A stretch of 64,000 bases of DNA from Patescibacteria group bacterium (lineage in GTDB: Bacteria > Patescibacteriota > Patescibacteriia > GWA2-46-9): NCBI GenBank assembly GCA_041660005.1, contig JBAZXG010000003.1, forward strand, positions 64,835 through 128,834. The letters are read 5' to 3'. The position numbers were made by a program, and so were the translations under genes. Below, piece after piece: positions 15,772 to 64,000 of this stretch. Every line of letters begins with the position of its first letter. Within the stretch, counting starts at the first letter, position 1. The notes beneath the pieces are model-generated. The model saw nothing but the letters and a program-made list of their open reading frames with translations. It was not told where the DNA came from and ran no database searches.

Positions 15772-15842
15772 TACACTGTAGCGCCAACTCCGTATACGTT
15801 CAAGTTGCGGAATTGGGTATCTTTCAATATACTGCAGTCCAT

Positions 15843-15914
15843 GCCCCGGTAGCTCAGTGGTAGAGCAGTGGCCTTTTAAGCCAATGGTCGCAAGTTCGAT
15901 CCTTGCCCGGGGCA
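15843..15914 (+). tRNA. tRNA-Lys (anticodon UUU)
   Basis: Acceptor stem GCCCCGG/CCGGGGC, D-arm GCTCAGTGGTAGAGC, anticodon loop CTTTTAA, T-loop TTCGATC. CCA is not encoded. Confidence 0.85.
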
Positions 15915-16120
15915 AAAAAACTTTAAGGAAAACCGCCTGGGTTTTCCTTAATATTCCTTTCCCTCCTTAGAGGACGTTCGAATTTTTCTTCGCTTCCACA
16001 ACTGTCATAGCCAGATTGTGGTTCTCGAAAAATTCTCACTCAGCAGTAGACCTTTCGATACAACTTCATGCCTGTCCGCCTTTGGCGGAGCTTTCTAGAA
16101 TAACTCTTTCCCTTGCCATT

Positions 16121-38742: not shown

Positions 38743-38751
38743 TGAATAATA

Positions 38752-39210
38752 ATGCGTACCATTAACCGAGACATCGTTTCTGTTTTGTTGCTTTCCAAAG
38801 AGGGTAAGTTACTTATTGGGCTGCAGTCTTTAAATGAATATAATGTTTACCCAGGATGTTGGGGTATTATCGGCGGAGGTGTCGACAACGGTGAAGACCA
38901 AAGAACTGCACTTAATCGCGAAGTATTAGAAGAGTCTGGTGTTGATATTCAAAAATACCATGCGGAGTTGATTGATGTAGCCGGTGGTGAAGCAGAAAAA
39001 ACTTTAAGAAACACGAATGAACGCGTTCTTGTAAAAATGAAGTTCCATGTTTACAGGGTCGTCATGGACGATAAAAACTCAAACGATATCACGGTAACGT
39101 TAAACGATGAGCACTCTGCATATCAGTGGCTATATTCATCTGAATTGAGTCAATTAAAACTTGCGCCTCCATCAGAAGCTTTATTTAAAAAACTTGGATA
39201 TTTGCAATAG
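38752..39210 (+). CDS. NUDIX hydrolase
   Basis: Nudix box GGGVDNGEDQRTALNREVLEESGV (Gx5Ex7REUxEExGU). Confidence 0.7.
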   Translation: MRTINRDIVSVLLLSKEGKLLIGLQSLNEYNVYPGCWGIIGGGVDNGEDQRTALNREVLEESGVDIQKYHAELIDVAGGEAEKTLRNTNERVLVKMKFHVYRVVMDDKNSNDITVTLNDEHSAYQWLYSSELSQLKLAPPSEALFKKLGYLQ

Positions 39211-39221
39211 TGTAATTATCA

Positions 39222-39509
39222 ATGATCTCCCTACTCAAAAAACCGAGTGCCTGGATTCCAATAGTTATTCCGCTACTCTTTTTTGCCTATATAGTTATTG
39301 CAATTTCTTTTTTTGAAATAGTGCGAGAGAAAGACGAAGGAGTTGGTGCGCACCTTTTTCAGTTGTGGCTCCTCATTGAACCGTTTATGGTTGGATATTT
39401 TGCTATTCGTTGGTTGCCGCGTGCACCGAAACAAGCAGTTACGATTCTAGTCATTCAGGTTCTCGCTGCACTTTTGCCTATATCAACAGTTTTCGCTTTT
39501 AAGCTATAA
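39222..39509 (+). CDS. Small membrane protein
   Basis: 95-aa ORF with 3 hydrophobic helices. Confidence 0.3.
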   Translation: MISLLKKPSAWIPIVIPLLFFAYIVIAISFFEIVREKDEGVGAHLFQLWLLIEPFMVGYFAIRWLPRAPKQAVTILVIQVLAALLPISTVFAFKL

Positions 39510-39520
39510 AGAACGAAACT

Positions 39521-40348
39521 ATGAAAGTTCTGTTACTCGGAGCAAATAGTTATGTCGGTTCACGAGTTTATTTAGAACTAAAAAAGGATCATGAAGTAGT
39601 TGGCACATTTCACAACAAAAAACTTTTTACGAATCTCGTCTTTCTTGATGTTACCGATAGGCAAGCGGTAATGGATCTTATTATTAAAGAAAAACCGAAC
39701 GTAATCGTTCACTGTGCAAATCAGGCGAGTAATAGGTGGTGCGAAGAACATTTAGAAGATGCCGTTAAGATTAATCGGGAGGCAACAAAATTTATTGTAG
39801 AGGGGGCGAATATTGTTGACTCAAAAGTAATTTATGTTTCTTCCTTCGCGGCGATTTCTCCGACTAACTTGTATGGAATAATGAAAGAGGAGTCAGAACG
39901 GATGATTAAAACGGTTCGTTCGGGTTACGCAATAATCCAGCCGGGGGTAATAGTTGGTATTAGTCCAAAGATAAAAAAGGAAGATGGATTTTTTAGTTCT
40001 CTTATGGAAAATTTAAATGACAATAAGCCGGCCGAGTATGACAATATCAAAAAGTATCAACCAACCTATTTGGGTCATATTTGCGAAGTAATCAAGTTGA
40101 TTTTAGAAAGAGGTCTTTGGAATAAAACATTTCCCGTAGCATCACTAGGCGTTAAAACAAAGTATGAATTAGCAAAAGACATCTTATCTCCTTTTGGAAT
40201 AACAGTAGAAGAAGTTGAAGGTAGTCACACGATTACTAAGAAAAAGACACAAGGCCTAAAGGAACTAAACGAATCGAGTCTGCCGGTCTACACATATATG
40301 CAGACCATTGAGAAGGTTGTCGAAGAAATTAAAGCCAGTAACTGTTGA
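39521..40348 (+). CDS. NAD-dependent epimerase/dehydratase (SDR) family protein
   Basis: N-terminal Rossmann motif MKVLLLGANSYVGSRVY. 275 aa. Confidence 0.55.
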   Translation: MKVLLLGANSYVGSRVYLELKKDHEVVGTFHNKKLFTNLVFLDVTDRQAVMDLIIKEKPNVIVHCANQASNRWCEEHLEDAVKINREATKFIVEGANIVDSKVIYVSSFAAISPTNLYGIMKEESERMIKTVRSGYAIIQPGVIVGISPKIKKEDGFFSSLMENLNDNKPAEYDNIKKYQPTYLGHICEVIKLILERGLWNKTFPVASLGVKTKYELAKDILSPFGITVEEVEGSHTITKKKTQGLKELNESSLPVYTYMQTIEKVVEEIKASNC

Positions 40349-40351
40349 ACT

Positions 40352-40963
40352 ATGAAAATCTTCCTCGCCACAACCAACGGTGGGAAAATTGAGCGGCTTA
40401 CGAAACTACTAAAACAGATCAACGTAGACATTGAAGTTTATACTCCGGCAGATTTACACATAGAAATTCCCGAAATTGTGGAAACTGGAAAATCTTTACT
40501 CGAGAATGCAAAGACTAAGGCCCGCGCATATTTTGGCAAAGTTCAAATGCCTATTCTTGCAAACGACACAGGTTTTTATGTAGAGGGGGAGGGGTTCATT
40601 GATGCGCCTAAACGGGAAGCGCTTGGAGAGGCCAGCGAGGGTACGTTGTCCTTAGAAGAGATCTCTAAAAAAATGGCAGATTTTTGGAAAGGTATAGCCA
40701 TTAAACACGGCGGCAAAGTAGACGCGTCATGGATTGAATCTTTTGTGGTTCTCTACCAGGACGGCACAATGAAAGAAGCTGAGTCCCGTAGAGATGTTGT
40801 TTTGACGAACCAAGAGTTTGGTACACCGCACGTACAAATGCCGGTACGTGCCCTCTATTACTCAAAAGTCACTAATAAACCCGCCATTCAACATACTAAA
40901 GAAGAGGAGATTCAAGAGATGAAGCCGATCATAGATGCTTTAGTCAATGTGTTAGAATATTGA
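40352..40963 (+). CDS. Non-canonical purine NTP pyrophosphatase, RdgB/HAM1 family
   Basis: MKIFLATTNGGKIERL, ETGKSLLENAKTKARA and LANDTGFYVEG match the HAM1 signature motifs. Confidence 0.6.
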   Translation: MKIFLATTNGGKIERLTKLLKQINVDIEVYTPADLHIEIPEIVETGKSLLENAKTKARAYFGKVQMPILANDTGFYVEGEGFIDAPKREALGEASEGTLSLEEISKKMADFWKGIAIKHGGKVDASWIESFVVLYQDGTMKEAESRRDVVLTNQEFGTPHVQMPVRALYYSKVTNKPAIQHTKEEEIQEMKPIIDALVNVLEY

Positions 40964-40993
40964 TTTTGGAAGCGTAGGGATGGTATTTGGCGC

Positions 40994-41021
40994 TTGACAG
41001 TAAATAACCGTTGTATATACT
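40994..41021 (+). promoter_or_regulatory. Sigma70-like promoter for the toxin-antitoxin operon
   Basis: TTGACA (40994-40999), a 16-nt spacer, then TATACT (41016-41021), 8 nt before the ATG at 41030. Confidence 0.45.
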
Positions 41022-41029
41022 ATAGATAT

Positions 41030-41305
41030 ATGAAAACTATTATCAACGTGAAAGCAGATAGGGACACAAAAATTAAAGCGCAACGTTTAGCAAAAGAGCT
41101 TGGATTACCTCTAAGCGTTGTTATTAACCAGTATTTAAAGGACTTTATACAGCAGGGTAAAATTACATTTTCGCAACCCTTGATGCCAAATACCAGAACT
41201 CGAAAGATGCTTGATCGGGTATTGGCTGACATCAAGAAAGGTAAGAATGTATCTCAGAGCTTTAACAATGCAAAGGATTTGATTGCTGACTTAAGAAAGA
41301 AGTAA
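41030..41305 (+). CDS. DinJ/RelB-family antitoxin
   Basis: MKTIINVKADRDTKIKAQRLAKELGLPLSVVINQYLKDFIQQGKI is a ribbon-helix-helix DinJ-like protein. The internal ATG was chosen because of the promoter position. Confidence 0.6.
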   Translation: MKTIINVKADRDTKIKAQRLAKELGLPLSVVINQYLKDFIQQGKITFSQPLMPNTRTRKMLDRVLADIKKGKNVSQSFNNAKDLIADLRKK

Positions 41306-41565
41306 TGTTGGTGCGTTATCACCGAGACTTTAAGAAGCAGTTTCAGAAATTAACTTTAAAGCAACAAAGCCAGTTTGATGAAAGGTTGGCCATTTTTAGC
41401 AATGATCCTTTTGCGTCGCAGTTGAATAATCATTCATTGCGGGGTGTTTACCAGGGCTGTCGCAGTATAAATATTTCCGGTGATCTACGAGTGATCTATG
41501 TTGCTGACAATGAAGGCGTTGCGTTACTTATAGCCATTGGAACGCATAGCCAGCTTTATGGGTAG
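41305..41565 (+). CDS. YafQ/RelE-family mRNA interferase toxin
   Basis: HSLRGVYQGCRSINISGDLRVIYVADNEGVALLIAIGTHSQLY matches the YafQ/RelE C-terminal motif. 1-nt overlap with the antitoxin. Confidence 0.65.
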   Translation: MLVRYHRDFKKQFQKLTLKQQSQFDERLAIFSNDPFASQLNNHSLRGVYQGCRSINISGDLRVIYVADNEGVALLIAIGTHSQLYG

Positions 41566-41567
41566 CT

Positions 41568-42113
41568 ATGATTAAAGTTGTAACTGTTCATGGCAGGTTC
41601 CAGCCGCCGCTACATAAGAATCACTGGAACTATATTAAAGCAGCTTTTGGCGTTGCAGAAAAAGTTATTATTCTTATCACTAACCCCAACCTGTCTGAAA
41701 AAGCTGTACCTGAAGCTGAACACAGAAATAAAGCTGATAATAATCCGTTGTCGTACGATGAGAGAGTAAAAATCTTTAAATCTTTTTTTGACAACATTGG
41801 CATCGCAAAAAATAGGTATGAATTCAAACCTTTTGATATTACCGACGAGAAGGAGTGGAGGAAGTTAGACAAGGGCACTCCAAATATGGTTAACGTGTAT
41901 AGTGACTGGAGTAATTCGAAGCTAGAAAAATTTAAAACACATGATCTTAAGGTTATTCGACTAGATCTTCAGCCGTTGGACGGTGTATCTGGAACACGTA
42001 TTCGTGAAATAATCTGGCGAAATATTGACGCATCTCAGATGCGAAATGAGTTGTTAAAAGCAGGGTATATGGAAGAAGCAATTCCAGGTCTTTTTGAAGT
42101 ATTGGGTTATTAG
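41568..42113 (+). CDS. Nicotinamide-nucleotide adenylyltransferase-like (NadM-type nucleotidyltransferase)
   Basis: VTVHGRFQPPLHKNH resembles the GRFQPFHxGH class-I nucleotidyltransferase motif. Confidence 0.5.
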   Translation: MIKVVTVHGRFQPPLHKNHWNYIKAAFGVAEKVIILITNPNLSEKAVPEAEHRNKADNNPLSYDERVKIFKSFFDNIGIAKNRYEFKPFDITDEKEWRKLDKGTPNMVNVYSDWSNSKLEKFKTHDLKVIRLDLQPLDGVSGTRIREIIWRNIDASQMRNELLKAGYMEEAIPGLFEVLGY

Positions 42114-50878: not shown

Positions 50879-51979
50879 ATGCTAAATATCGTTTCCCACT
50901 CGCGAAGCGTTCGACCATCGCTCTACTTTGCTGCCGCGGGTTTTTTTATCGCCGTGGGTATATTAGTCAATGTTAGTCCCTTACGTTTATTGCGGGCAAC
51001 TGACACGCCGTCTCCTGAAGAATCAGCAATTGTGAGTATCATTGCACATTCGTTACCGAGTGTCGTTAGTATAGTCGGCGTACAGGACCAAGGTCAGACG
51101 AGTAGTGTTGTTGGTCGCGGTTCAGGTTTTGTTGTCAGCAAAGATGGCTTAATTCTCACAAACAAGCATGTTGTTGAGCAGCCGAACCTGACGTACCGCA
51201 TTTTTTTTGATGACGGTCGGAAATTCACCGCAAAGGTTGTAGCACGCGACCCATTGAACGATATCGCCATCCTTAAAATTCCTGGCAACAACTTTACGTC
51301 ACTAGCGCTTGGTAACTCAGACAATGTGAAAATTGGTCAAACAACGATTGCTATCGGCAATTCACTGGGAGCATACGAGAATAGCGTGACGAAAGGGATT
51401 GTTAGCGGTCTTGGGCGGTTTATCAATGCAAGTAATGATCTCACCGGTAGTACCGAGACGATCGAAGACGCTATTCAGACTGACGCTGCTATTAATCAGG
51501 GGAACTCCGGTGGGCCGCTTCTTAATTCGCGCGGAGAAGTGATGGGCATTAACACTGCCATCGTTTTACAGGGTAGGGGAGTAGGATTTGCTATTCCCAT
51601 TAACCTTGCTAAAAACGCCATTAGTTCTTACCAAAAAAACGGAAGAATTGTTGAGCCATACCTTGGTGTTCGTTACGTATCCATTAATGCAGAATTTCAA
51701 GAGACCAACAAACTACGCTACGACTATGGCGCCATGGTGAGCTCTGGCACTGATGCACGCTCGCCATCAGTGATAGCTGGAAGCCCCGCCGCGATTGGTG
51801 GACTGCAAGACGGTGATATCATCCTCAGTGTGAACAACGTGTTAATCCGTGGAAAAAATACGCTGCGTGACATTATTACAACGCATAAACCTGGTGATAA
51901 GCTAACGCTCGTGGTAGCTCGGGCTGGCAGTGTTTTGAACATAGTGGTTACGCTTGTTGAAGTTCCTGCAGCGCAGTAA
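50879..51979 (+). CDS. HtrA/DegP-family serine protease with a PDZ domain
   Basis: Catalytic triad context HVV, DIAILKI and GNSGGPLLN. C-terminal PDZ domain. Confidence 0.8.
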   Translation: MLNIVSHSRSVRPSLYFAAAGFFIAVGILVNVSPLRLLRATDTPSPEESAIVSIIAHSLPSVVSIVGVQDQGQTSSVVGRGSGFVVSKDGLILTNKHVVEQPNLTYRIFFDDGRKFTAKVVARDPLNDIAILKIPGNNFTSLALGNSDNVKIGQTTIAIGNSLGAYENSVTKGIVSGLGRFINASNDLTGSTETIEDAIQTDAAINQGNSGGPLLNSRGEVMGINTAIVLQGRGVGFAIPINLAKNAISSYQKNGRIVEPYLGVRYVSINAEFQETNKLRYDYGAMVSSGTDARSPSVIAGSPAAIGGLQDGDIILSVNNVLIRGKNTLRDIITTHKPGDKLTLVVARAGSVLNIVVTLVEVPAAQ

Positions 51980-53199
51980 TGGCAAAAAAAGTTCTTATCT
52001 TAGGAAGCGGTTTCGGTGCGGTTTACACCTATCGCGCCTTGCGAAAAGCATTCCGTACCGACAAGGAAATTACCGTCACTATTCTTGCCAAAACGAACTA
52101 CTTTTTATTCAGTCCAATGCTGCATGAAGTAGCGACGGGCGGGTTAGACCAACGTGATATCGTACAATCGATACGAGGCATATTGAACTGCTGCCAGGAT
52201 GCCTTTATTGAATGTGAGGTTAGTGGTATTAATGCTGAAACAAAAAGAGTTAGCACCAACAGGGGCGAGTTTTCCTATGATTATCTGGTTGTTGCGGTTG
52301 GTGCAAACGCATCCTTTTTTAATGTCCTTGGCGCCGCAGAGTTTGCGCTGCCCTTGAAAACTCTGCACGATGCGCTAGCTATTCGTTCCAAAATTCTGTC
52401 ACTACTTGAGGAGTCACTTTCAACAAAAGACCAGGAAGAACGTCGACGACTTTTACGCTGGGTTGTTGTTGGCGCTGGTCCAACAGGGGTTGAGCTTGCC
52501 GCTGAAATGGTGGAATTAGCTGAATCGTTCGCTAAGACTGCTCCAATGGGTACTAAATTTGAAATCGATACACAATTACATCAGTCAAGTAATCAGATAC
52601 TAGCAACCTTTGACCCTAAAGTGCAAAAAGTGGCCGCATCGGTTCTGAGAAAAAAAGGTGTAATCATAAATTTAAATAGCAAAATTATCGAGGTAAAGAA
52701 GAATGGCGTGACACTAGCAAGTGGAGAGTTTTTACCTGCGGGTGTCGTCATCTGGACAGCTGGAGTAGCAGCCGTTCCGCTCATCTGTAATCCAACGACT
52801 ATCCTGAATGACCGTCAGTGTATAAAAATTACGCAGTATTTAAACACTATAGAGTACCCAGAAATTTTTGCGGTTGGCGACGTTGCCTATGTACCCGGTG
52901 TCCCGCAAACGGCGCAGGCCGCCGTAGCTGAGGCCATAGTAGCAGGTAAAAATATTTTGGCTATGGTCAAAGACAAACCGCTTATTCCTTTTCACTTTAA
53001 AGAAAAAGGTACCCTTGTTTCGTTGGGTCAATGGAGGGCCGCCGGTATGCTCTATGGGGTTAAGATTGAGGGCAGATTTGCCTGGTGGCTATGGAGAACG
53101 ATTTATCTTTTTAAACTGATTGGCGTACGGAACCGCATTCGTGTTGCTATAGACTGGACGCTGAACCTTTTTTTCTTGAGAGATATATCGCAGATCTAA
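51979..53199 (+). CDS. Type II NADH dehydrogenase-like FAD/NAD(P)-dependent oxidoreductase
   Basis: Two dinucleotide-binding motifs, ILGSGFGAV and VVGAGPTGVELAAE. Confidence 0.7.
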   Translation: MAKKVLILGSGFGAVYTYRALRKAFRTDKEITVTILAKTNYFLFSPMLHEVATGGLDQRDIVQSIRGILNCCQDAFIECEVSGINAETKRVSTNRGEFSYDYLVVAVGANASFFNVLGAAEFALPLKTLHDALAIRSKILSLLEESLSTKDQEERRRLLRWVVVGAGPTGVELAAEMVELAESFAKTAPMGTKFEIDTQLHQSSNQILATFDPKVQKVAASVLRKKGVIINLNSKIIEVKKNGVTLASGEFLPAGVVIWTAGVAAVPLICNPTTILNDRQCIKITQYLNTIEYPEIFAVGDVAYVPGVPQTAQAAVAEAIVAGKNILAMVKDKPLIPFHFKEKGTLVSLGQWRAAGMLYGVKIEGRFAWWLWRTIYLFKLIGVRNRIRVAIDWTLNLFFLRDISQI

Positions 53200-53325
53200 T
53201 CCGAGCGAGATTCACTGTGTTATGGCGCGTCAATTTTATGAATTTTTTAAAGCAATTGAGTTGACGAAAATGCTAATTTGGGTTAAACCTATAGGGCATT
53301 TATTTACCCGAACAGTCATTTTGCA

Positions 53326-53805
53326 ATGAATAATTTGGGCTCACAAGCTGTTTTAACGGAGAAGGGAAGGAAAAAGGCAGAGGAGGAGCTGTCATTGCTT
53401 ATAAATAATAAACGACCCGAAGTTTCTGAAAAAATTCGCACCGCTAAAGAAATGGGCGATATTTCTGAAAATGCTGAATATGCCGCAGCGAAAGAAGAGC
53501 AGAGCTTCAACGAAGCGAGAATCCTAGAATTACAAAATTTACTTAAGACCGCCGAAATTGTTACAAACACTGGGAGCGGAAAAAACAGTACGGTTAGTGT
53601 AGGTGGTACGGTGGTCGTTCGCGACAACGGAGGCAAAGAGCGAAGATTTACAATCGTCGGAGTTAACGAAGCGAACCCCAAAGAGGGAAAAGTAACCAAT
53701 GAGTCCCCGGTCGGACAAGCGCTCATTGGTCAAAAAAAGGGCGATACCGTTCAGGTTGAAACACCAAACGGAATAAAATCACTAACAATTCTTGAGATTT
53801 TGTAG
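53326..53805 (+). CDS. greA: Transcription elongation factor GreA
   Basis: GDISENAEYAAAKEEQ coiled-coil signature and a C-terminal FKBP-like domain. Confidence 0.8.
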   Translation: MNNLGSQAVLTEKGRKKAEEELSLLINNKRPEVSEKIRTAKEMGDISENAEYAAAKEEQSFNEARILELQNLLKTAEIVTNTGSGKNSTVSVGGTVVVRDNGGKERRFTIVGVNEANPKEGKVTNESPVGQALIGQKKGDTVQVETPNGIKSLTILEIL

Positions 53806-53811
53806 GTTACT

Positions 53812-55299
53812 ATGGCTGAACCACACGACGAGCTTACCGTAAGGCGAGAACGCTTGGAACATATTATTGCTAGTGGACTTGATCCTTATCCAAGTACCAG
53901 TAGCAGAACCCATGCTATTGACGCAGTTAAACAGGACTTCGATGCACTTCTAGCTGGAAAAGAAGTCGTTACTATAGCGGGTCGTGTTTTAGCCATACGT
54001 GAACATGGTGGCTCTACTTTTCTTTCCCTTAACGACGGGACGGGAGACTTGCAGGGCTACATGAAGCAGGATGTGGTTGGCGACACTAGTTATTTATTGC
54101 TTCAAGATTTAGACGTCGGCGATTTCATTGAAATAACGGGCACACTATTTATAACGAAGCGAGGCGAGAAATCAATTTTGGCCTCTGTTGGGCATCGTAT
54201 GCTCGCAAAATCCTTGCGACCGCTCCCAGAAAAGTGGCACGGGTTAGCGGATACTGAATTGAGACTCCGAAAGCGGTATCTTGACCTCATTGTGAACGAA
54301 GAGATGCGGGACCGCATGTATAAGCGCTCAGCAGTAATTTTGGCAATGCGAAATTTTATGAACAGTAACGGCTTTCTTGAAGTCGAGACGCCAACACTGC
54401 AGCCCATTTATGGCGGCGGTCTCGCTCGTCCATTTAAAACCTACCACAATACACTTAAAAGAGAGTTCTATTTGAGAATATCTGATGAGATGTACTTGAA
54501 ACGGCTCTTGGTTGGCGGCGTAGAAAAAGTCTATGAAATTACAAAAGTTTTCCGCAACGAAGGCATCGACAGAGATCACAACCCTGAGTTCACTATGTTT
54601 GAGTCGCAAACAGCATACAAAAATTACGAATGGGGGATGGACTTTTTCGAAGCTATATTCGAGCATGTGGCAACGTCCGTTTTTGGAAAAACAATAATTG
54701 AATACCAAGGAGTAGAGTTAAACTATAAGCGGCCATGGAAACGGGTGCGCTTTATTGATGCTGTTCAAGAAGTTACCGGCCTCGATGTTTCTAAATGCAG
54801 CACCCCAAAAATCGCTAAAGATGAAGTGAAGAAATTGTTACCAAAAGAACTGGCGGAAAAGCTTACGCCGCTCGAAACGGTGGGTGAAATACTGGCTTTA
54901 GCTTTTGAGGAATTAGTTGAATCCACTTTCATACAACCCACAATAGTTTATGACTACCCGGTTGAGGTTTCGCCACTGGCAAAGAAAACACCGGATAAAA
55001 AATTTGTAGAAAGGTTTGAAGCGTTCATTATGGGTAGTGAAGTAGGTAATAACTATTCTGAGCTCAATGACCCAGTGGACCTGGAAAAACGCTTTATTGA
55101 CGAGAAAAGGAAAGAAAAAGCTGGATTTACAGAAGCACACCAAACCGACTACGAATACCTGGAAACAATTCAGCATGGTATGCCGCCCGCTTGTGGTTTA
55201 GGAATTGGAGTGGATCGCATGATTATGTTCATGACGAACGCAAAGAACATTAAGGAGGTTATTCTTTTCCCAACGCTACGCCCTAAGGAAGACGAATAG
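53812..55299 (+). CDS. lysS: Lysine--tRNA ligase (class II)
   Basis: N-terminal OB-fold anticodon-binding domain and class II motifs (FRNEG motif 2, GIGVDRM motif 3). Confidence 0.9.
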   Translation: MAEPHDELTVRRERLEHIIASGLDPYPSTSSRTHAIDAVKQDFDALLAGKEVVTIAGRVLAIREHGGSTFLSLNDGTGDLQGYMKQDVVGDTSYLLLQDLDVGDFIEITGTLFITKRGEKSILASVGHRMLAKSLRPLPEKWHGLADTELRLRKRYLDLIVNEEMRDRMYKRSAVILAMRNFMNSNGFLEVETPTLQPIYGGGLARPFKTYHNTLKREFYLRISDEMYLKRLLVGGVEKVYEITKVFRNEGIDRDHNPEFTMFESQTAYKNYEWGMDFFEAIFEHVATSVFGKTIIEYQGVELNYKRPWKRVRFIDAVQEVTGLDVSKCSTPKIAKDEVKKLLPKELAEKLTPLETVGEILALAFEELVESTFIQPTIVYDYPVEVSPLAKKTPDKKFVERFEAFIMGSEVGNNYSELNDPVDLEKRFIDEKRKEKAGFTEAHQTDYEYLETIQHGMPPACGLGIGVDRMIMFMTNAKNIKEVILFPTLRPKEDE

Positions 55300-55300
55300 T

Positions 55301-55732
55301 ATGGAAAAGAAAGTTCTGATTTTCGGGACCTTTGATCTATTGCATCCTGGACACCTTAGTTTTTTAAAAGAGGCAGGCGACATCGGTTCGGTTGTCGTTG
55401 CGCTGACGCCTGACGCATTGTTGGTTACCTACAAAGGAAGGCCTGCAGTTAACCCGTATGCCGTAAGAAAAAGACGCCTTGAACGGCTTACCTGGGTGCA
55501 GGAAGTAGTCAGCGCAGATGCAATCCCAAATACGTATAGTATTTTGATGCGGGTTAAGCCCGAAGTCATTTTGCTCGGTTACGACCAAGGACACCTAGCA
55601 AAGCAGCTCACTACCCGCATTCGTGAGTACCATCTGAAGATTGACATTGTTATCGCGCGTCCTTATAGAGCTTCTATTTACCGTTCGTCGCTTTTTCGTG
55701 TACCAATGATAAAGGTTAAAGCTGCTGTCTAG
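55301..55732 (+). CDS. Cytidylyltransferase-like nucleotidyltransferase (RibL/TagD-like)
   Basis: FGTFDLLHPGHLSFL (HxGH). Confidence 0.55.
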   Translation: MEKKVLIFGTFDLLHPGHLSFLKEAGDIGSVVVALTPDALLVTYKGRPAVNPYAVRKRRLERLTWVQEVVSADAIPNTYSILMRVKPEVILLGYDQGHLAKQLTTRIREYHLKIDIVIARPYRASIYRSSLFRVPMIKVKAAV

Positions 55733-55770
55733 TTGCGCTGATAGCAACACACGCTATACTTAAAACATGC

Positions 55771-57063
55771 TTGATAAGTATGCTTGATATTGAGATTCTT
55801 CGTAAACAACCACAGATAGTCATCGCCTCACTGAAAAAAAGGGGAGGGGATGTGGTAAGGGTTGATGAACTGATTAAATTGGATAATGCTTGGCGTTCAA
55901 AAACTGAAGAAGTTGAAGCACTGCGTTCAAAGCAAAAAACTTTATCAAATGAGCGTCGCATTGATGAGGCAAAGATCAATAAAGAGGCTATTAAGCAGGC
56001 CGAGAGCGAACTTTTAGAACTTCAGAGTATGCGTGATGCCGCTTGGATCGCTATTCCAAACATCTTGCATGAGGATGTACCCGAAGGAAAAGATGATTCA
56101 GAGAACAAGGTTATAAAGACGTGGGGTGTGCAACCGGCATTTACCTTCCCGCCGAAAGATCATATGGCGCTCGGTGAGTCACTGGATATTATTGACATGG
56201 AGCGCGCGGCTGAGGTTACGGGTGCTCGGTTCTACTACCTTAAGGGAGATGGGGCGCTGCTGGAGTTTGCATTACTCCACTATGCTATGTCGCGCTTAAC
56301 TGACGAAGCATGGATAGCTAAAGTTGCAGCTGCTGCGGGTGACGGTGTCAGCACGAAAACTTTTATACCGGTTATTCCTCCGGTGATGGTACGTCCGGAT
56401 GTTTTCGTTAAAATGGCGCGCCTACAACCCGGCGTCGACGAAGATGAGCGTTATTATATCCCGTCTGATGACCAGTACCTCATTGGCAGCGCGGAACATA
56501 CACTGGGTCCGCTCCACATGAACTCAACACTGAACGAAGATGACTTGCCCATACGGTATGTCGGTTTTTCTACCTGTTTCAGGCGCGAAGCCGGCTCTTA
56601 CGGAAAAGACACCAAAGGTATGATTCGCGTGCATCAGTTTGACAAGGTAGAAATGGAGACTTTCGCTACTGCGGATATGGCCACGCAGGAGCAAAACTTT
56701 TTAGTCACTGTTCAAGAAACGTTACTACAAGAACTTGGCTTGCCGTATCAAGTCGTGGCAGTGTGCGGCGGTGATATTGGTAGCCCTGATGCTCGACAAA
56801 TTGATTTGGAGTGTTGGATGCCCGGACAGCAGAAATATCGAGAAACAAATTCGGCTGATTTGGTCAGCGACTACCAAGCAAGACGCTTAAATACAAAAGT
56901 TCGTCGTAAAGAAGGCGTTGAATTCGTGCATATGAACGACGCAACAGCTATAGCCATGAGTCGCATCATTGTCGCTCTTTTAGAAAACTACCAGCAAGAG
57001 GATGGCACCATTGCCGTTCCGCAGGTTCTTCGTCCATTTATTGGCAAAGATAGGATCAGCTAA
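55771..57063 (+). CDS. serS: Serine--tRNA ligase
   Basis: N-terminal coiled-coil arm and a class II core (RFYYLKGDGA, GFSTCFRRE, the ALLENYQ tail). Confidence 0.9.
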   Translation: MISMLDIEILRKQPQIVIASLKKRGGDVVRVDELIKLDNAWRSKTEEVEALRSKQKTLSNERRIDEAKINKEAIKQAESELLELQSMRDAAWIAIPNILHEDVPEGKDDSENKVIKTWGVQPAFTFPPKDHMALGESLDIIDMERAAEVTGARFYYLKGDGALLEFALLHYAMSRLTDEAWIAKVAAAAGDGVSTKTFIPVIPPVMVRPDVFVKMARLQPGVDEDERYYIPSDDQYLIGSAEHTLGPLHMNSTLNEDDLPIRYVGFSTCFRREAGSYGKDTKGMIRVHQFDKVEMETFATADMATQEQNFLVTVQETLLQELGLPYQVVAVCGGDIGSPDARQIDLECWMPGQQKYRETNSADLVSDYQARRLNTKVRRKEGVEFVHMNDATAIAMSRIIVALLENYQQEDGTIAVPQVLRPFIGKDRIS

Positions 57064-57081
57064 ATTGCTGCAATTCTTGTT

Positions 57082-58251
57082 ATGCAGCTTGATCCGAAGA
57101 CCGTTGAACTATCAAAAATTAAACAGATAGAACTGCTAGCGTCGGCGAGGCCCGATACTGTCTCCTTGGCTCAAGGAATACCATCATTTGACACGCCAGA
57201 CGAAGTCAAGCGTTTTGCTATTCGTGCCATCGAAGACGGTCGCGTTGCTAAATATTCGCTCGCCCCTGGTCTCATTGAACTACGTGAAGCCATTGAAGAA
57301 TCGCTGATTAAAGACAGTATGCACTACGACTCCGAAGAAGAAATAATTGTAACCGCAGGTTCAATCGAGGCAATAAGTGCGACCATGCTGGCGTTGTTAC
57401 AATCCGGCGATGAGGTCATTCTGTTTTCACCCAGTTATGTTTCTTACCGTCAGTCAATTTTATTGGCAAAGGCCAAACCGGTTTATGTACCTCTCGACGA
57501 AGAGCATGAGTGGAGCATCAATTTTGAAGCGCTTCTTGCGGCACTTACTTCGAATACGCGAGTCATTCTGATTTGTAATCCTAATAACCCAACCGGCAGC
57601 ATTTTTAAAAAAGACGATCTTCTTAAAATCGCGCAAATCGCTGAGAGCCGTAATCTTTTCGTTGTACTCGATGAGGTGTATAAAGATTTTATATACGATA
57701 ATCGTACGTTTTACTCACTAGCTACCGAAAGCAAATACCGTGACCGCGTCATTCGCGTCTATAGTTTTTCAAAAGCGTATGCAATGACCGGCTGGCGTAT
57801 TGGTTATTTACATACAAGTAAGGAGCTAGCGAGAAGAATTTTGGCCGTTCATGACGGTTTGGTAACATGCGCTCCGGTTGTGTCGCAGTACGCCGCACTT
57901 GGCGCGCTGACTCTTCCCGCAGCATCTTGGCAGGTTTATCTTGGCGAGTATAAAGCCCGTCGGGACCTCCTTGCGTCTTACCTTGATAAAATTGTAGGGT
58001 TAACCTACACCATGCCAACTGCCTCGTACTTTTTCTTCCCAAAAATTAATCGAAACGTGGTTAACAATTATGCTGATTCCGAAACTTTTGCCCTGCAAAT
58101 GCTCAGTATCGCAGGCGTTGCAACTGTCCCGGGTTCTGCATTCGGCCCAAGTGGAGAAGATCATCTTCGCCTATCTTTTGGCAGGGATCGGGAAACAATA
58201 AGTAAAGGCATGGAAAGAATGATGACATTTTTTAAATCACATGCCGACTAG
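57082..58251 (+). CDS. Pyridoxal-phosphate-dependent aminotransferase (class I/II)
   Basis: SFSKAYAMTGWRIGY lysine-containing PLP motif, and NPNNPTG. Confidence 0.8.
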   Translation: MQLDPKTVELSKIKQIELLASARPDTVSLAQGIPSFDTPDEVKRFAIRAIEDGRVAKYSLAPGLIELREAIEESLIKDSMHYDSEEEIIVTAGSIEAISATMLALLQSGDEVILFSPSYVSYRQSILLAKAKPVYVPLDEEHEWSINFEALLAALTSNTRVILICNPNNPTGSIFKKDDLLKIAQIAESRNLFVVLDEVYKDFIYDNRTFYSLATESKYRDRVIRVYSFSKAYAMTGWRIGYLHTSKELARRILAVHDGLVTCAPVVSQYAALGALTLPAASWQVYLGEYKARRDLLASYLDKIVGLTYTMPTASYFFFPKINRNVVNNYADSETFALQMLSIAGVATVPGSAFGPSGEDHLRLSFGRDRETISKGMERMMTFFKSHAD

Positions 58252-58987
58252 CTTAGTTAAAAATATTGTTCGAGTTTATCTTGGTGTTCTCGCACGCACG
58301 CGGGTTTTACGCAGTCAGTCTTACGTTGTTGTCGTGTCGGGTATTAACGGCAAGACAACCACAAAACGAGCAATTTACGACGCACTTAAGGATAGGAACT
58401 GCAATGTCTTCATGTCGGAAATGAATTACAATACGGATATTGGTTTACCCTTAACGATTCTTGGCTTAACCCCTCCACCAAGAAAGGCAGGGGAGTGGGC
58501 TATTGCCCTCTGCAAGGCCGCGATGAGTTCTCTGTTTGGAAAGAAACTTCCAGAATTCTTAGTTGTGGAATTTGGTATTGCAGACAAGGGTGACATGAAT
58601 AAACTTCTCACTGTAGTGAAGCCAAACATTACTGTTGTTACGAATACTCATTATTCGGACTTTAACCCCAATACAACACTTGATGAACTGGCGCACGAAC
58701 TGTCAGTGCTTGCAGCCGCAACTTCTACCAGGGGTCTTGTGGTTCTCGGGGGCGATAATGCTTACGTTGATGCATTGCGCTCTGCTACCAAAGCAAGAAC
58801 GGTAACGTTCGGTTTTGAAAAAAATAACGACATTGTTATTTCAAAAACAGACGAGACGGTGGATGGTACAACCATTTTAATCAACAATAAAGAGTACACT
58901 GTTGCATCATCGGGGAATAATCATTTTTATGCTTTTACTGCTGCTCAGCTCGTCAGCGACTTCATTTTCAAAAAAATAAAAGAATAA
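58241..58987 (+). CDS. Mur ligase family protein, short form (MurF-like central domain; C-terminal domain absent)
   Basis: VVSGINGKTTTK P-loop, VVEFGIADKGDMNKL..VVTNTHYSDF. At 248 aa it is about half the length of canonical MurF. Confidence 0.5.
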   Translation: MPTSLVKNIVRVYLGVLARTRVLRSQSYVVVVSGINGKTTTKRAIYDALKDRNCNVFMSEMNYNTDIGLPLTILGLTPPPRKAGEWAIALCKAAMSSLFGKKLPEFLVVEFGIADKGDMNKLLTVVKPNITVVTNTHYSDFNPNTTLDELAHELSVLAAATSTRGLVVLGGDNAYVDALRSATKARTVTFGFEKNNDIVISKTDETVDGTTILINNKEYTVASSGNNHFYAFTAAQLVSDFIFKKIKE

Positions 58988-58992
58988 CGTGT

Positions 58993-59817
58993 ATGTTCGA
59001 TAAGCTACACTGGCGCTACCAACCAAAGAGAGTTTCGCCCTATAGAGACAATACTAAACAGGTGATAAAAAAGGGGTTGCGACCTTTCTGGATAGTTGTT
59101 TTTATTATTATCGCAGGTATTGTCTACCTACTCTTCGGCACTCGTTTTTTTTATATTAATAAGATCAATGTCCAGGGGACTCGCTATCTTGAAAAGCAAC
59201 AAATTGTCGACAAAGTTAACGCGCTATTACAGCATCGTCGTTGGTTCATTATCCCTGAGTCAAATATCTTCTTTACGCCAGTGGCGCAGATCCAGAGCGA
59301 CTTAACGGATATACGTTTAGAACGTATCAGCGTAACTCGCTCATTTCCAAGTACGTTGAATATTCAAATTACCGAGAAGCAGGCCAGTGCCTTCTGGAGC
59401 TCTGGTAACCGATGGTATGAGCTCGATAAAAACGGATTTATCATGAGCGAGGTGGTCAAACCCAGCGATAATAGTGTCAAAATTACCTTTGCGAACTCCT
59501 TAGAGCCGGCAGAAATTGGTAAGCAGGTAATAGACCCGAAACTTCTTGAGGAGGCGCTAGCTATTAAAGCGAACTTGCCAGACCTGCCAGTAACCGCGCT
59601 TGATGTATTTGTGATTGATCCTGCGAACCCATACACGATCAGTTTCAGAAACAAACAAGGTGCACTCATTTATTTTACGACCGAACTTTCGCTACAAACG
59701 CAACTTCAGAAACTGACAATTTTTAACAATGACAAAAATAGAACGGAAGCCGGTTGGCAGGATAAAATTCATTACATTGACTTAAGATACGGCACAACAA
59801 AAGTCTATTATCAATAA
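58993..59817 (+). CDS. FtsQ/DivIB-like cell division protein (POTRA domain)
   Basis: One TM helix followed by YINKINVQGTRYLEKQQIVDKV (POTRA) and a beta-rich C-terminus. Confidence 0.55.
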   Translation: MFDKLHWRYQPKRVSPYRDNTKQVIKKGLRPFWIVVFIIIAGIVYLLFGTRFFYINKINVQGTRYLEKQQIVDKVNALLQHRRWFIIPESNIFFTPVAQIQSDLTDIRLERISVTRSFPSTLNIQITEKQASAFWSSGNRWYELDKNGFIMSEVVKPSDNSVKITFANSLEPAEIGKQVIDPKLLEEALAIKANLPDLPVTALDVFVIDPANPYTISFRNKQGALIYFTTELSLQTQLQKLTIFNNDKNRTEAGWQDKIHYIDLRYGTTKVYYQ

Positions 59818-60393
59818 ATTATTGTGCGACACATAGATATTCTGCAGACGATCGAGAGGGCACAGAGTAGTTCGAATAGTCGAGTCTATATAAATGATGA
59901 TAGAAAGGACCCTGTCCTATGGACAAAAATCTTCAACGCAAGGCTTGCGTTAGTCATATTAAGTCCCGATGGACTATCTGGTTAATAACTTAAATTTAGA
60001 CTCAATTCAAGGCTTTTAAATGCCCTGGGCTGCGTTCAATCTGAACCAGCTAAGTGTTTATACCTTTGACACGTTCTTGTTGGACTTCGGTAATTATAAT
60101 CGTTGCTGATAATCAGACATGGAGAATTTCTACCTAGGCACACTCTCTATAAGAAAGAAGACACTAAACTAGAAATGTAGGGTCAGAAGAAAATGGGCGG
60201 TAACGACTTACTTATGGATAACCATTACTTTAGTGTCGTATAAGATATATTGTGCGACTCATACATAATATAACTTATGAAGTTAAAACTACTCCCCTAT
60301 AGTATTTACACCCGCGGAGATTGTCTGAATCTCGCGCGGGTGTAATCGTATCGCCTCCTTCTTGTAACTAATTATTGTCTGGTTGCGTGGCGG

Positions 60394-61485
60394 CTATCTT
60401 GTGGTGTGTAACTCGCCGGCGAATGTTCCCCGGAATTCGACTTGCGGCTCGTCTCCGCGGCGGTTCACCACTTGGCCTATCTGGATGGCAGACTCCCCGA
60501 CCGGTCGCAGGCGCGGTGAACAACGCAGCTCGCCGTTTTCGACCACGCTAACCATCTGGATACCTTGATTGAAGACGTGATCCATTTCATCAGGATCGAT
60601 CTGGCCGACGAATTGAGCCATCCGCAGTATCGGCGGCCGATCCCAGGCATCGCGATTCAGTACGACCTTGAGCGTCGACGGGAGAATGCGCGGGATGTTC
60701 TCGACGAGACCGCCGCCCGTGATGTGAGCATGAGCCGCAAAAACGGTACCCAGCTTACGCTCAGCCTCGCAGGCGTCGATGTACATCTGCGTCGGTACCA
60801 TCAGCGCGTCAGCGAGAGTGTCGTCGAGATCTGACCAGTACTTTGCAAGTCGGCGCAGAACAGTTCTCGGACCGGCATTCAGCCCGAAGACTCGCCGCAG
60901 TAGCGAATAGCCATTCGCTCCCGGTCCCTTCGAGGGCCAACCGTAGACACATTGTCCAGCTTTGACCGCTCCGGTAATCGTTCCGGCAGAAAAGCCGATG
61001 CCGAAAGCAGCGATGTCGAAACCGTTTGCTCTCCGGAACATTCCCGGATGCTCAGCTGTTTCTCCACCGATCAGTCTGCACCCGGCAGCCTTGCAGGCAG
61101 CGATGACGCCGTCGATCACCTCGATGTGGTCTTCTGGCACGAGCTTCGCGACCGCCAGATAGTCGAGGGCAAAGGCGGGTTGGTGGCCCGCGCAGTACAG
61201 GTCGACCAGAGCCATGGCGCCAGCATCGCTCCCGACCCCCTTGTAGTAGCCGCGACCAAGCACTGCAGCGATGTCCGGCTTTGTGCCCGCGCCATCGGTT
61301 GATGCCGCTAAGCGCGCTACCCGCCGACGAGCGCTCCGAGGAATCAATCCCCCGCCAGCAAACCCGCCGATTTCATCCCCTCCGCCTGGCCAGGCCTTCT
61401 CTATTCGTGCTTTCACGAGATCCTCGAAGACACCTGCCGCAGAAAGGCTGACTCCGGCTTGTTCGTACAGTCTTGCAGTTGTCAA
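60394..61485 (-). CDS. purM: Phosphoribosylformylglycinamidine cyclo-ligase (AIR synthetase)
   Basis: STDGAGTK, GGETAEHPGMF, GANGYSLLRR and AHITGGGLVENIPRILP align motif-for-motif with PurM. The GC content is far above that of the flanking sequence. Confidence 0.8.
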   Translation of the reverse strand: MTTARLYEQAGVSLSAAGVFEDLVKARIEKAWPGGGDEIGGFAGGGLIPRSARRRVARLAASTDGAGTKPDIAAVLGRGYYKGVGSDAGAMALVDLYCAGHQPAFALDYLAVAKLVPEDHIEVIDGVIAACKAAGCRLIGGETAEHPGMFRRANGFDIAAFGIGFSAGTITGAVKAGQCVYGWPSKGPGANGYSLLRRVFGLNAGPRTVLRRLAKYWSDLDDTLADALMVPTQMYIDACEAERKLGTVFAAHAHITGGGLVENIPRILPSTLKVVLNRDAWDRPPILRMAQFVGQIDPDEMDHVFNQGIQMVSVVENGELRCSPRLRPVGESAIQIGQVVNRRGDEPQVEFRGTFAGELHTTR

Positions 61486-61677
61486 TGTCGTTCACTCCTT
61501 ATAGAAACGTCTCACGGTTGATCCGTGGCGGAAACATCTTATCACTTAACTCAAATTTTGCAATTGATTTTTTAATAACTACTGTACTCGTTGCGCCGCG
61601 TAGCTTTTGTTTCCCTTACTTTAATGCTTTAAAGTATTGATGTATTTCGAAAGACAATCAAGACTTAGCTTATTAAG

Positions 61678-62430
61678 CTACTCCTTGATCGACGCACTAA
61701 AACTTTCACCTCGAACGTAAAGATAGTCGCTGCTCGTCTCACGCTGATGACGGATAGACAAGTACACCATCAAAAAAGCGGCGCAGTACAGTATTCTAAA
61801 AACGACGAGTTGCCAGTCAGAAACAACCTTTGCGAGGTCAATAGCTCCTAAGAAAATATACAGAAGAATGGCACTGTTATACAGCAATTCATAACCCGAA
61901 GCCCTGCTTTTTTTCATTTTCCATTCACGGTATTTTGTTACTGAGTCATAGAGAAGTAAAAGCGCCAGCACCGCTATTGAAACGCGAAACAGTATGGCTG
62001 AAACCGGGTTAGCTACCGCTTCTGTTGTAAAAAAAGTTATGGGTTCAAAAATTACGCCGTTGGGTTGCGCCAAAAACCAACTCCCTATAACAGAAACAAT
62101 AAATGAAAGGAACGCTAAAATACGTGCAATGCGAACGTTTTTAAAAACTTTCAATCCTACGTAATAGTAGAGTGGTATACCGCTCAAAAAAACAGTCGCC
62201 TGACTGAAAACCGCTGAGGTAAAGCGTGGAAAATCCTCAACTCCAACTCCTAATAGAGTATTTCGGTACGCGTTCTGAGCCCATAGGAGGCCCGTAGCGA
62301 GCCAGAACAGCCCATAAGCACTCATAATATGGCTAAGATGCTTAGAAAAGAGCTCATAAACTAATATAAATGCAACCACTGATACGACAGCGGTTACAAA
62401 TGCATGGAAAATGAGCCCAATGCTTACCAT
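61678..62430 (-). CDS. Hypothetical polytopic membrane protein
   Basis: 250-aa ORF with 7 hydrophobic helices. Confidence 0.4.
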   Translation of the reverse strand: MVSIGLIFHAFVTAVVSVVAFILVYELFSKHLSHIMSAYGLFWLATGLLWAQNAYRNTLLGVGVEDFPRFTSAVFSQATVFLSGIPLYYYVGLKVFKNVRIARILAFLSFIVSVIGSWFLAQPNGVIFEPITFFTTEAVANPVSAILFRVSIAVLALLLLYDSVTKYREWKMKKSRASGYELLYNSAILLYIFLGAIDLAKVVSDWQLVVFRILYCAAFLMVYLSIRHQRETSSDYLYVRGESFSASIKE

Positions 62431-62439
62431 GGTGAAATT

Positions 62440-63660
62440 TTACGGAAGGTAACGCACAGGGTCAACCGAAACGCCGTTTTCATGAACCTCGAAGTGAAGG
62501 TGCGGCCCAGAGCTGTACGGTCCGGTACCTGGTGCGCCAGGAGTAGCGCCAGAAAGTGCAATAACCTGACCCTGAGTTACAAAAGTATCTTGGGCAACAA
62601 GCGCGCTCGATATGTGGCCGTACACGGTCGTCAATCCACCGTCGTGAATCAAGGCAATATACCAATAATTTCGAGGGTTACCTGTTTTAATTTTTGCGAC
62701 ATAACCGGATGCCGCAGCCCGAATTGGTGTCCCCTGCGCAGCTCTAATATCGATTGCATTGTGCTCAAAAAGGTAACGAAGCGGATAGTCGGGGTCTCGG
62801 AAATTGGTTGTAACTTTGTTCTTGGGAACTGGCCAAATAAGTCTTGGTGCGGGACCGTTGGTTTGCACGCCTTCCGCCTTCAACTTATCACGGACAGTCT
62901 GTTCTAAAGCGGCAACTTCTCTATTGGCTTGCTCTTGCTGATCTTTAACTTGTTGCAATAGCGCTGAGAATCGTTGTTCGGAGGACTTTGTTTGATCCAA
63001 AACATATCTCTTCAAAGACTGCCGATCCTCTAAGTCTAGAGACTGCTGACGTAGATCATCTGTCGCTGAAATAAGCTCCCCGCGCTTATTTTCAATTTGC
63101 TTTTTTTCGTCAGCCAACGCTTGCCGTGTTGCGTCTACTTCAACAATGACATTGTCGAGCTTATTTTGAAGCGTTTGTAGGTTTTGCAGATGACTGTAAA
63201 AAGTAGAAAAATTTTGCGTCGTAAAAAGTGCTTGCAGTGGCGAACGGCTTCTCTCACGAACCAAATAACGAAGTAGCGAACCAAGATCTGCTCGAAGTGA
63301 AGTCAGTTTATCTTGCTTGTCGTTAATTTCAGTTTCCAGGTTGCTTATTTCTAAATTCACTTTTTCAATATTTAACTGACCAGTCTCAATGTTAATTTGG
63401 GTTTTAGAAATTTGGTCACTGAGTATGCCTAACTGGTTTGCCAAGGTACGTTTTTCACTTTGCTTTTGCTTCAAACTTTTTTGGTACTCTGCTGCTTGCT
63501 CCTGCAGCTTTTTCATTTCTTCTTGCTTGGCGTTTATCTGCTGCTGCAGTGCGGTTATTTCATTACTGTCTGCGGCAAATACGTTGAAGCTGTACATCGG
63601 CAACAGTGAAAAGATTACAGCCACAAAAATTGTTAGTATGCCGTGCTTAATCATTTGCAT
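62440..63660 (-). CDS. M23-family peptidase with an N-terminal coiled coil (EnvC-like murein hydrolase activator)
   Basis: Signal peptide, a long Q/E/L-rich coiled coil, and a C-terminal LytM domain (HDGGLTTVYGH...GPHLHFEV). Confidence 0.75.
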   Translation of the reverse strand: MQMIKHGILTIFVAVIFSLLPMYSFNVFAADSNEITALQQQINAKQEEMKKLQEQAAEYQKSLKQKQSEKRTLANQLGILSDQISKTQINIETGQLNIEKVNLEISNLETEINDKQDKLTSLRADLGSLLRYLVRERSRSPLQALFTTQNFSTFYSHLQNLQTLQNKLDNVIVEVDATRQALADEKKQIENKRGELISATDDLRQQSLDLEDRQSLKRYVLDQTKSSEQRFSALLQQVKDQQEQANREVAALEQTVRDKLKAEGVQTNGPAPRLIWPVPKNKVTTNFRDPDYPLRYLFEHNAIDIRAAQGTPIRAAASGYVAKIKTGNPRNYWYIALIHDGGLTTVYGHISSALVAQDTFVTQGQVIALSGATPGAPGTGPYSSGPHLHFEVHENGVSVDPVRYLP

Positions 63661-64000
63661 TGGTTAATTTTACGAGCGCACTGTCAATACGCTCCAGGAC
63701 AGACGCCTTTCCTATTACGCACGCAATGGTAAATGGACTTGGGCTAACCGCTTCGCCAGAAAGCGCAGTCCTGAGTGGCCACAGGGTCTCCCCTACTCCC
63801 AAATTGTCTTTGGTTATTGTAGCCCGTAATTCGCTCTCGAATTTTTGCTCCTCAAAAAAGTTATCACCTAAATTAGTTACCCACGCACGAATAGCACGTA
63901 ATCGTTCAATGGTTGTATCTTTATTTGATTTTTTGGGTACGAGGAGTGCTGGGTCGTAGTCAAAATTTGGATCAAGATAAACCTTCAGTGCGTCTGGTAG
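63647..64000 (-). CDS. gltX: Glutamate--tRNA ligase, C-terminal fragment; 5' end outside the window
   Basis: Manual translation of the minus strand from nt 64000 gives ...ETLWPLRTALSGEAVSPSPFTIACVIGKASVLERID..*, the conserved GltX C-terminal anticodon-binding region. It is absent from the ORF track because it has no Met. Confidence 0.6.
   Translation of the reverse strand, partial: LPDALKVYLDPNFDYDPALLVPKKSNKDTTIERLRAIRAWVTNLGDNFFEEQKFESELRATITKDNLGVGETLWPLRTALSGEAVSPSPFTIACVIGKASVLERIDSALVKLTNAND

Follow-up and report, generated by a model that had tools for sequence, protein, structure and literature searches.

Chromosomal dif sites have been recognised by a 28-bp core with an 11-6-11 layout that is non-coding, low in GC and palindromic, lies at the peak of cumulative skew and has one arm better conserved than the other (PMC2731167, PMC5357621). 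Foreign DNA can be found beside such sites, as with the integrative mobile elements exploiting Xer (IMEX; CTX-phi, TLC-phi and the gonococcal genetic island) and the pdif modules of Acinetobacter, which have degenerate dif-like repeats near them (PMC5357621). Among biosynthetic genes, purM is known to be carried singly on mobile DNA, as in phages, where it is an auxiliary metabolic gene, and hundreds of viral contigs encode it. The view of an earlier note on the DNA studied here, that Candidate Phyla Radiation (CPR) bacteria typically lack purine synthesis, is true of the majority, although complete purine synthesis was found in 32% of 399 metagenome-assembled genomes (MAGs) from the CPR (PMC11608272) and de novo nucleotide synthesis in 7%, with 'scattered phylogenetic distributions' (bioRxiv 10.64898/2026.06.21.733656). 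Here we describe a stretch of 64,000 nucleotides from a Patescibacteria group bacterium (the window; GenBank assembly GCA_041660005.1, contig JBAZXG010000003.1, positions 64,835 to 128,834) in which a solitary, GC-rich purM, the gene for phosphoribosylformylglycinamidine cyclo-ligase (aminoimidazole ribonucleotide (AIR) synthetase), stands next to a candidate dif-like site. It is likely that the replication terminus of a Ca. Uhrbacteria-related member of the Patescibacteria lies within the window and that a foreign segment of about 1.35 kb with purM was inserted there.

We propose that, in this lineage only, an insert of about 1.35 kb would have entered in the interval that separates the dif-like site from the 3′ end of an operon with genes for an M23 peptidase and a 250-aa protein (Table 1). 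The insert would hold one gene, a purM of a Patescibacteria-specific PurM clade from an unsampled donor of about 60% GC, probably together with the hairpin that follows it. Horizontal acquisition, which the earlier note had suggested, is supported because purM is foreign in composition, because the site is empty in the nearest syntenic relative and because ten other lineages that have the junction lack the gene; a donor from outside the phylum does not fit the evidence.

Table 1. Features of the gap around purM and of its two flanks (positions in the window).
Feature	Position	Strand	Description
FtsQ-type POTRA gene	58993-59817	+	Pfam POTRA_1; ends the block of plus-strand genes (left replichore); left flank of the convergent gap
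Direct-repeat copy 1, isolated half-site	59820-59839	+	Right-arm-like TTGTGCGACAC (59822-59832), no matching left arm
AT-rich non-coding spacer, half-site to dif-like site	59840-60232	.	About 140 bp shorter in the relative, barely alignable
Candidate dif-like tyrosine-recombinase core site, 28 bp	60233-60260	+	GTGTCGTATAA (left arm)-GATATA (centre)-TTGTGCGACTC (right arm)
GC-rich stem-loop	60306-60345	-	17 bp, one bulge, 5-nt loop; 48 nt past the purM stop
purM	60394-61485	-	Phosphoribosylformylglycinamidine cyclo-ligase (AIR synthetase), Patescibacteria PurM clade, foreign composition
AT-rich region upstream of purM	61486-61677	-	Shine-Dalgarno AAGGAG at 61495-61500
Gene for 250-aa hydrophobic protein	61678-62430	-	Right flank of the gap; function unassigned

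Composition of purM and its surroundings

The gene has 60.3% GC overall and 63.7% GC at third codon positions (GC3), against means of 43.3% and 40.9% in the 58 other open reading frames (ORFs) of the window (z 3.9 and 3.8); the second GC-richest ORF has 50.5%. The values of about 60% for purM and 40-45% for its neighbours that the earlier note had counted by hand were thus close to the mark. In the sliding-window comparisons that it had proposed, a 200-bp GC profile rises and falls at the edges of purM, and the tetranucleotide distance of the gene from the rest of the window lies 6.1 standard deviations above the mean. A deviation as large was reached by just one other 1.1-kb segment of 304, which sits in a low-GC island near 31.6 kb. 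Housekeeping genes of the window (the aminoacyl-tRNA synthetase genes, GreA, MreB and a ClpB-like gene) have GC3 values of 0.41-0.45. Genes of the same PurM clade at six other loci exceed their flanks by 4-9.5 GC points and the window purM exceeds its own by about 16, so the composition of the protein accounts for only part of the excess.

The spacers on the two sides of the gene are AT-rich and, as had been noted before, devoid of ORFs of 60 aa or more: the left one (59818-60393) spans 576 bp with 39.6% GC and a longest internal ORF of 53 aa, and the right one (61486-61677) 192 bp with 35.9% GC. A non-coding RNA in the left spacer was considered and rejected; Rfam returned nothing at gathering or E-value thresholds and ARAGORN nothing in that region. 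Likewise, the 415-nt stretch from the half-site to the dif-like site has no excess folding stability (z -0.4 and -0.9 on the two strands).

The same junction in related genomes

The ftsQ gene on the left flank encodes a protein with one close homologue among 5.8 billion proteins, 51% identical, from Ca. Uhrbacteria bacterium CG10_big_fil_rev (GCA_002793855.1; locus L088, hereafter the CG10 relative). The orthologue holds the same position at the gap, within a gene order shared over more than 13 kb, in which NDH2-GreA-AspRS-CTP_transf-SerRS-aminotransferase-Mur_ligase-FtsQ converges on 247aa-M23-GluRS-WecG/NUDIX-LigT. The CG10 relative has no purM; its gap between FtsQ and the 247-aa gene measures 374 bp, compared with 1,860 bp in the window, and its locus has 44.7% GC, similar to the window. 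The net extra DNA in the window amounts to about 1,345 bp. In the relative, 69 bp separate the dif-like site from the end of the orthologue of the 250-aa gene, which is 68% identical.

The orthologous site was empty in L088, L089 and L090, and a tblastn search with PurM against 13 further loci with the same junction motif (L173-L185) gave no match. Altogether, purM is missing from the junction in all 11 other lineages that have the ftsQ/M23 junction, the CG10 relative and ten more, so that parsimony favours one gain here over 11 losses. The polarity of the change would then be that of a gain in this lineage.

A candidate dif-like site

The direct repeat that the earlier note had seen in the left spacer is 20 nt long and identical at 18 of 20 positions (59820-59839 and 60248-60267; chance expectation 0.01 for a 16-mer), and its second copy consists of the right arm of the dif-like site plus 7 nt. 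The CG10 relative, which has no purM, carries both copies at the same places, and a 28-nt stretch around the second copy is identical in the two genomes, against an identity of just 65-68% for their coding DNA. This marks the repeat as ancestral and constrained, and not as a scar of the insertion. Its first copy starts 3 nt past the ftsQ stop codon; the CG10 counterpart at the same place reads TATTGTACGACACAT and lies 287 bp upstream of the dif-like site there. By its sequence and position, this copy is best described as an ancestral half-site. Two other identities considered for the repeat were dropped on reading the sequence: an NrdR box would fit just one half of it, and a promoter would call for a conserved -35 element, which is missing.

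In a metagenome scan, the 20-mer AGATATATTGTGCGACTCAT was found exactly in 13 loci that range from 27 to 61% GC. When these are oriented by the motif, all 13 switch from plus-strand genes on their left to minus-strand genes on their right; in most of them GC skew is positive on the left and negative on the right, and several retain the arrangement in which SerRS...FtsQ converges on M23. The dif-like core is conserved in 12 distinct lineages, with a variable left arm and a right arm that is constant, the latter having been fixed by the search pattern. By direct reading, complementarity between the two arms extends to 8 of 11 positions in the window and to 10 of 11 in L176.

The window itself has its cumulative G-C maximum at 60254, inside the site, and a position-weight scan finds one full dif-like site in the 64 kb. 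Gene orientation switches around it: 53 of the 56 ORFs to its left are on the plus strand and all of those to its right on the minus strand, plus-strand genes ending at ftsQ (59817) and minus-strand genes starting at 60394. Because the published features of dif fit 60233-60260, we consider this segment a candidate dif-like site; the second repeat copy is likely its right arm, and the window would span the replication terminus of the chromosome.

The candidate resembles the XerC/XerD dif of E. coli (GGTGCGCATAA-TGTATA-TTATGTTAAAT) in its 28-bp 11-6-11 layout, partial dyad symmetry, non-coding location, low GC and place at the skew peak (PMC2731167). Its inner left arm, TCGTATAA, and its AT-rich centre match those of listed dif sites such as that of Acinetobacter ADP1 (GATTCGTATAA-TGTATA-TTATGTTAAAT, listed as GATTCGTATAATGTATATTATGTTAAAT in Table 1 of PMC2731167). 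Its outer right arm reads GCGACTC, unlike the GTTAAAT of the proteobacterial XerD arm, and the greater symmetry of arms of the window type, 8 to 10 of 11 positions, is a likeness to single-recombinase systems. None of the window ORFs has a Phage_integrase domain by Pfam, and our literature search found no description of dif in Patescibacteria. The site could be a candidate dif for a set of Patescibacteria lineages and mark the terminus in fragmented MAGs, where such a marker would aid assembly checking, the orientation of replichores and the estimation of growth rates from coverage.

The PurM protein and its probable donor

The purM gene is intact. It starts with TTG, 9 nt after the Shine-Dalgarno sequence AAGGAG, and encodes 363 aa in which Pfam detects AIRS (PF00586, 2.6e-16) and AIRS_C (PF02769, 2.3e-19). 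The NCBIfam purM model TIGR00878 aligns end to end (profile positions 3-331 of 332) with 220 bits and the next-best families, SelD and ThiL, score at most 25 bits, which leaves PurM as the sole candidate family, in the form of a divergent clade. The match to solved PurM structures is full-length (2Z01, E 1.8e-52; PDB chains align to residues 4-342), and the protein retains 32 of the 32 residues that are invariant across its clade. Like canonical AIR synthetases (E. coli 1CLI, Geobacillus kaustophilus 2Z01; TIGR00878), it combines AIRS_N and AIRS_C in a full-length alignment and conserves the DG(x)GTK, GGETAE and HITGGG blocks; unlike them, it belongs to a separate Patescibacteria clade and is 34-41% identical to the PurM of other phyla. 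The encoded enzyme would be predicted to spend ATP to cyclise formylglycinamidine ribonucleotide (FGAM) to AIR, which is step 5 in the de novo synthesis of purines.

The best homologues of the protein are 42-52% identical, and those that carry a name come from Buchananbacteria, Kerfeldbacteria, Andersenbacteria, Moranbacteria and 'Patescibacteria group'. Outside this clade, PurM identity falls to at most 40% in the protein search and 39% in viral contigs; PurMs of reference genomes reach at most 41% among the matches listed, and these are canonical PurMs with no CPR relatives among them. In a neighbour-joining tree, a long branch parts the Patescibacteria clade from ordinary PurMs. The window protein lies inside the clade on a long, solitary and deep branch with no close sister, and its neighbours in this tree come from other CPR lineages. 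The search by PurM homology for a donor lineage, suggested in the earlier note, thus led to a Patescibacteria-specific clade and to no donor above 52% identity.

Members of the clade adjoin purD and purF in one locus (L002) and purN in another (L091), which argues that the enzyme of this clade functions in purine synthesis. Elsewhere in the clade the gene is found by itself with unrelated neighbours, and an isolated purM is thus nothing out of the ordinary here. As a side observation, the PurD encoded next to the clade PurM in L002 (11047-12300) has its nearest homologues, 41-47% identical, in non-CPR organisms (Balnearium, Aminicenantes, Ammonifex), and the pur genes of that contig may be a patchwork. 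As for composition, one of the loci with the same dif-like 20-mer (L180; Ga0315275_10000001, a 336-kb contig) has 61% GC together with the convergent switch and the M23 peptidase, which indicates that the group includes Patescibacteria-like donors of about 60% GC. Most likely, purM came from an unsampled GC-rich member of the same phylum. A viral origin of purM was also considered and rejected, as viral contigs gave only distant PurMs; unlike the auxiliary metabolic genes borne by phages, the window copy is of the CPR type and has no phage genes near it.

Alternative explanations

Pfam finds neither an integrase nor a transposase domain in the window ORFs, and no significant repeat brackets the insert. 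We think that the segment entered by illegitimate or homology-assisted recombination, and not through Xer. The opposite possibility is that purM arrived on an element integrated at dif by the Xer recombinases of the host in the manner of IMEX and pdif modules. In its favour, the insert lies 1-133 nt from the dif-like site, and possible scars of such events are present in 6 of 12 lineages (L176/L178, L179, L182, L184, L088/L181 and the window): half-sites resembling the right arm, with no more than 3 mismatches in 15 nt, are found 52-591 bp left of the dif-like site, with about 0.2 expected in total by a rough estimate. These half-sites could be integration scars or accessory binding sites. They are all, however, on the side of the dif-like site opposite to purM, and none was found to its right within the same range in the 12 lineages. 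Likewise, there is no second site or half-site beyond purM (61486-61677), where a third repeat copy suggested by MAFFT was dismissed after its local alignment score was reached in 118 of 1000 shuffles. Unlike the cargo of IMEX and pdif modules, purM is not bracketed by two Xer sites, and its only half-site is ancestral as well as on the wrong side. No phage or plasmid genes accompany purM, and in no other lineage is there cargo of odd composition at its position. In view of this, capture by Xer appears improbable.

Viral genomes provide another point in favour of Xer capture, as two IMG/VR contigs carry a full dif-like site of the form (G)TCGYATAA-GATATA-TTGTGCGACAC, with the same CAC arm variant as the first repeat copy (6355-6373 in L186, IMGVR_UViG_3300038466_000102; 101-119 in L187, IMGVR_UViG_3300014208_000095). 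The site of L186 is downstream of an HNH endonuclease gene and 570 bp upstream of the gene for a GpA-type large terminase, with same-strand genes on both sides. Such sites may be phage attachment or resolution sites that use the Xer of the host. One could go further and picture the terminus as an Xer-using landing pad, in which the half-sites are scars, phages exploit Xer, purM was delivered in this way and its second site has since decayed. We give this scenario as little credence as Xer capture itself; if it were true, dif-directed capture would be a route for genome-reduced CPR bacteria to regain biosynthetic genes. The idea that the vicinity of the dif-like site generally attracts foreign genes is not supported, since no comparably anomalous gene is present there in the other lineages. 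The outlier among them is a 131-aa ORF in L183, with 61% GC in a locus of 46% GC (z +2.5) and about 1.1-1.5 kb to the left of the dif-like site, which could be another small foreign insert or a spurious ORF.

Slightly less credible still is that purM is ancestral and was lost by the Uhrbacteria relative, its high GC being due to selection on the gene. The genes of the PurM clade are always somewhat GC-richer than their flanks, and there is a single close relative for the comparison, both of which would suit such a history. The size of the excess speaks against it, with a GC3 of 64% against 41% and no housekeeping gene of the window near that value, as do the absence of purM from the junction in all 11 other ftsQ/M23 lineages and the lack of a close sister for the protein within its clade.

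The least credible alternative is the mis-joined contig also raised in the earlier note. The identical protein is deposited on a 154,447-bp NCBI/JGI contig under the label 'Patescibacteria group bacterium', and in a Logan assembly of SRR18595301 a 17.5-kb contig (L001) matches window positions 51543-64000 (12,458 bp) with 99.98% identity; it holds both purM junctions, and its two mismatches, at 55770 and 55783, are far from them. A chimera, in which the assembler joined into the contig a purM fragment of some GC-rich organism living alongside, would explain the abrupt change of composition on both sides of the gene but is unlikely, indeed very much so, as both junctions are common to the two assemblies, the exact protein is recorded in a single contig context with no alternative flanks, no repeat is common to the two junctions, and syntenic host DNA resumes on either side, so that two precise false joins would be needed in one intergenic gap.

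Several observations weigh against the insertion of a foreign purM at the terminus, which we nevertheless prefer. The two concordant assemblies may share one read set. The CG10 genome is the only close relative, with an FtsQ just 51% identical, and the spacer after the dif-like site cannot be aligned with it, so the ends of the insert are unmappable. The flanks of the insert show neither a mobility gene nor a target duplication nor another recombination site, and no donor closer than 52% identity exists among the 5.8 billion proteins. As for the protein, its NCBIfam score falls just below the equivalog cut-off of 236.35 bits. The motif of the PurM superfamily, which we take to be DX4GAXP, reads D95-LYCA-G100-H-Q-P103, with Asp, Gly and Pro kept and Ala replaced by His; the position is variable in the clade, where just 21 of 68 members have Ala.

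Expression and possible role

purM follows the 3′ end of the minus-strand LigT-WecG/NUDIX-GluRS-M23-250aa operon, is co-directed with it and has a good ribosome-binding site, so that its expression by read-through would be plausible. A minus-strand scan of the 192-bp gap between the operon and purM found neither a sigma-70-like promoter nor a terminator, which makes read-through possible.

Downstream of purM, the earlier note had described a perfect nested hairpin. The structure is real and strong, with a centroid of -31 kcal/mol in a 111-nt context (z -4.4), although one bulged base keeps it from being perfect in the strict sense: its outer arms are 11-mers that pair without fault, and its inner stem has 6 bp. 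It has the GC-rich stem of an intrinsic (Rho-independent) terminator and lacks the U-tract, no U-tract or T-run following it on either strand, and it was absent from the terminator scan. The hairpin probably came along with purM, because it is GC-rich like the gene and because the CG10 relative has no alignable counterpart at the corresponding position. It may terminate or stabilise the purM transcript ahead of the dif-like site. Other identities were considered for it and rejected. A REP-like (repetitive extragenic palindromic) repeat does not fit, as the hairpin occurs once in the window. An integron attC site does not fit either, as 40 nt is too short and reading of the sequence finds no RYYYAAC/GTTRRRY cores, which we assume to be the attC core motif.

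Pfam scans of the 58 other main ORFs (at least 120 aa) and of two ORFs of 53 and 167 aa found no other pur gene, in agreement with the earlier note, and none was found in a 5.1-kb extension beyond the window. A PurD search for pur genes on the 154-kb contig returned no match from that contig and is uninformative. We consider the chances about evenly balanced that purM works in a pathway whose other genes lie elsewhere in the genome; a life as an orphan passenger seems somewhat less likely, and other roles take up what is left. The composition of purM shows no amelioration, which suggests that the gene arrived recently, and its intactness thus says little about selection.

The locus offers a clean case of how the patchy nucleotide synthesis of Patescibacteria can arise, by the gain of one gene within the phylum and with an empty site as control. 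It is a new example of kinds already known, gene gain within Patescibacteria and a dif-like site, and nothing in it overturns current understanding; its value resides in careful annotation and in a site that can be tested.

Other features of the window

Between the aminotransferase gene and ftsQ lies a truncated Mur ligase gene (58241-58987) for 248 aa with the middle domain only. A short Mur-ligase gene is also present in the Uhrbacteria relative (9309-9998 of L088), so this unusual truncated architecture is common to both.

A stretch of low GC (29790-42113; 30-41% compared with 44-49% elsewhere) begins about 420 nt past tRNA-Gln (29297-29370). Among its products are proteins with MUG113/T5orf172, DpnI-like, Schlafen AlbA_2 and AbiEii toxin domains and several small-molecule enzymes (PNPOx, His_Phos_1, NUDIX, RmlD-like and Ham1), together with many ORFs without a Pfam match. 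The stretch resembles a tRNA-adjacent island with defence and toxin-antitoxin genes, and it includes the one segment whose tetranucleotide deviation equals that of purM. Finally, the 5′ end of the DnaB ORF on the minus strand (14374-15915) overlaps tRNA-Lys on the plus strand (15842-15915), and DnaB itself therefore probably starts further downstream.

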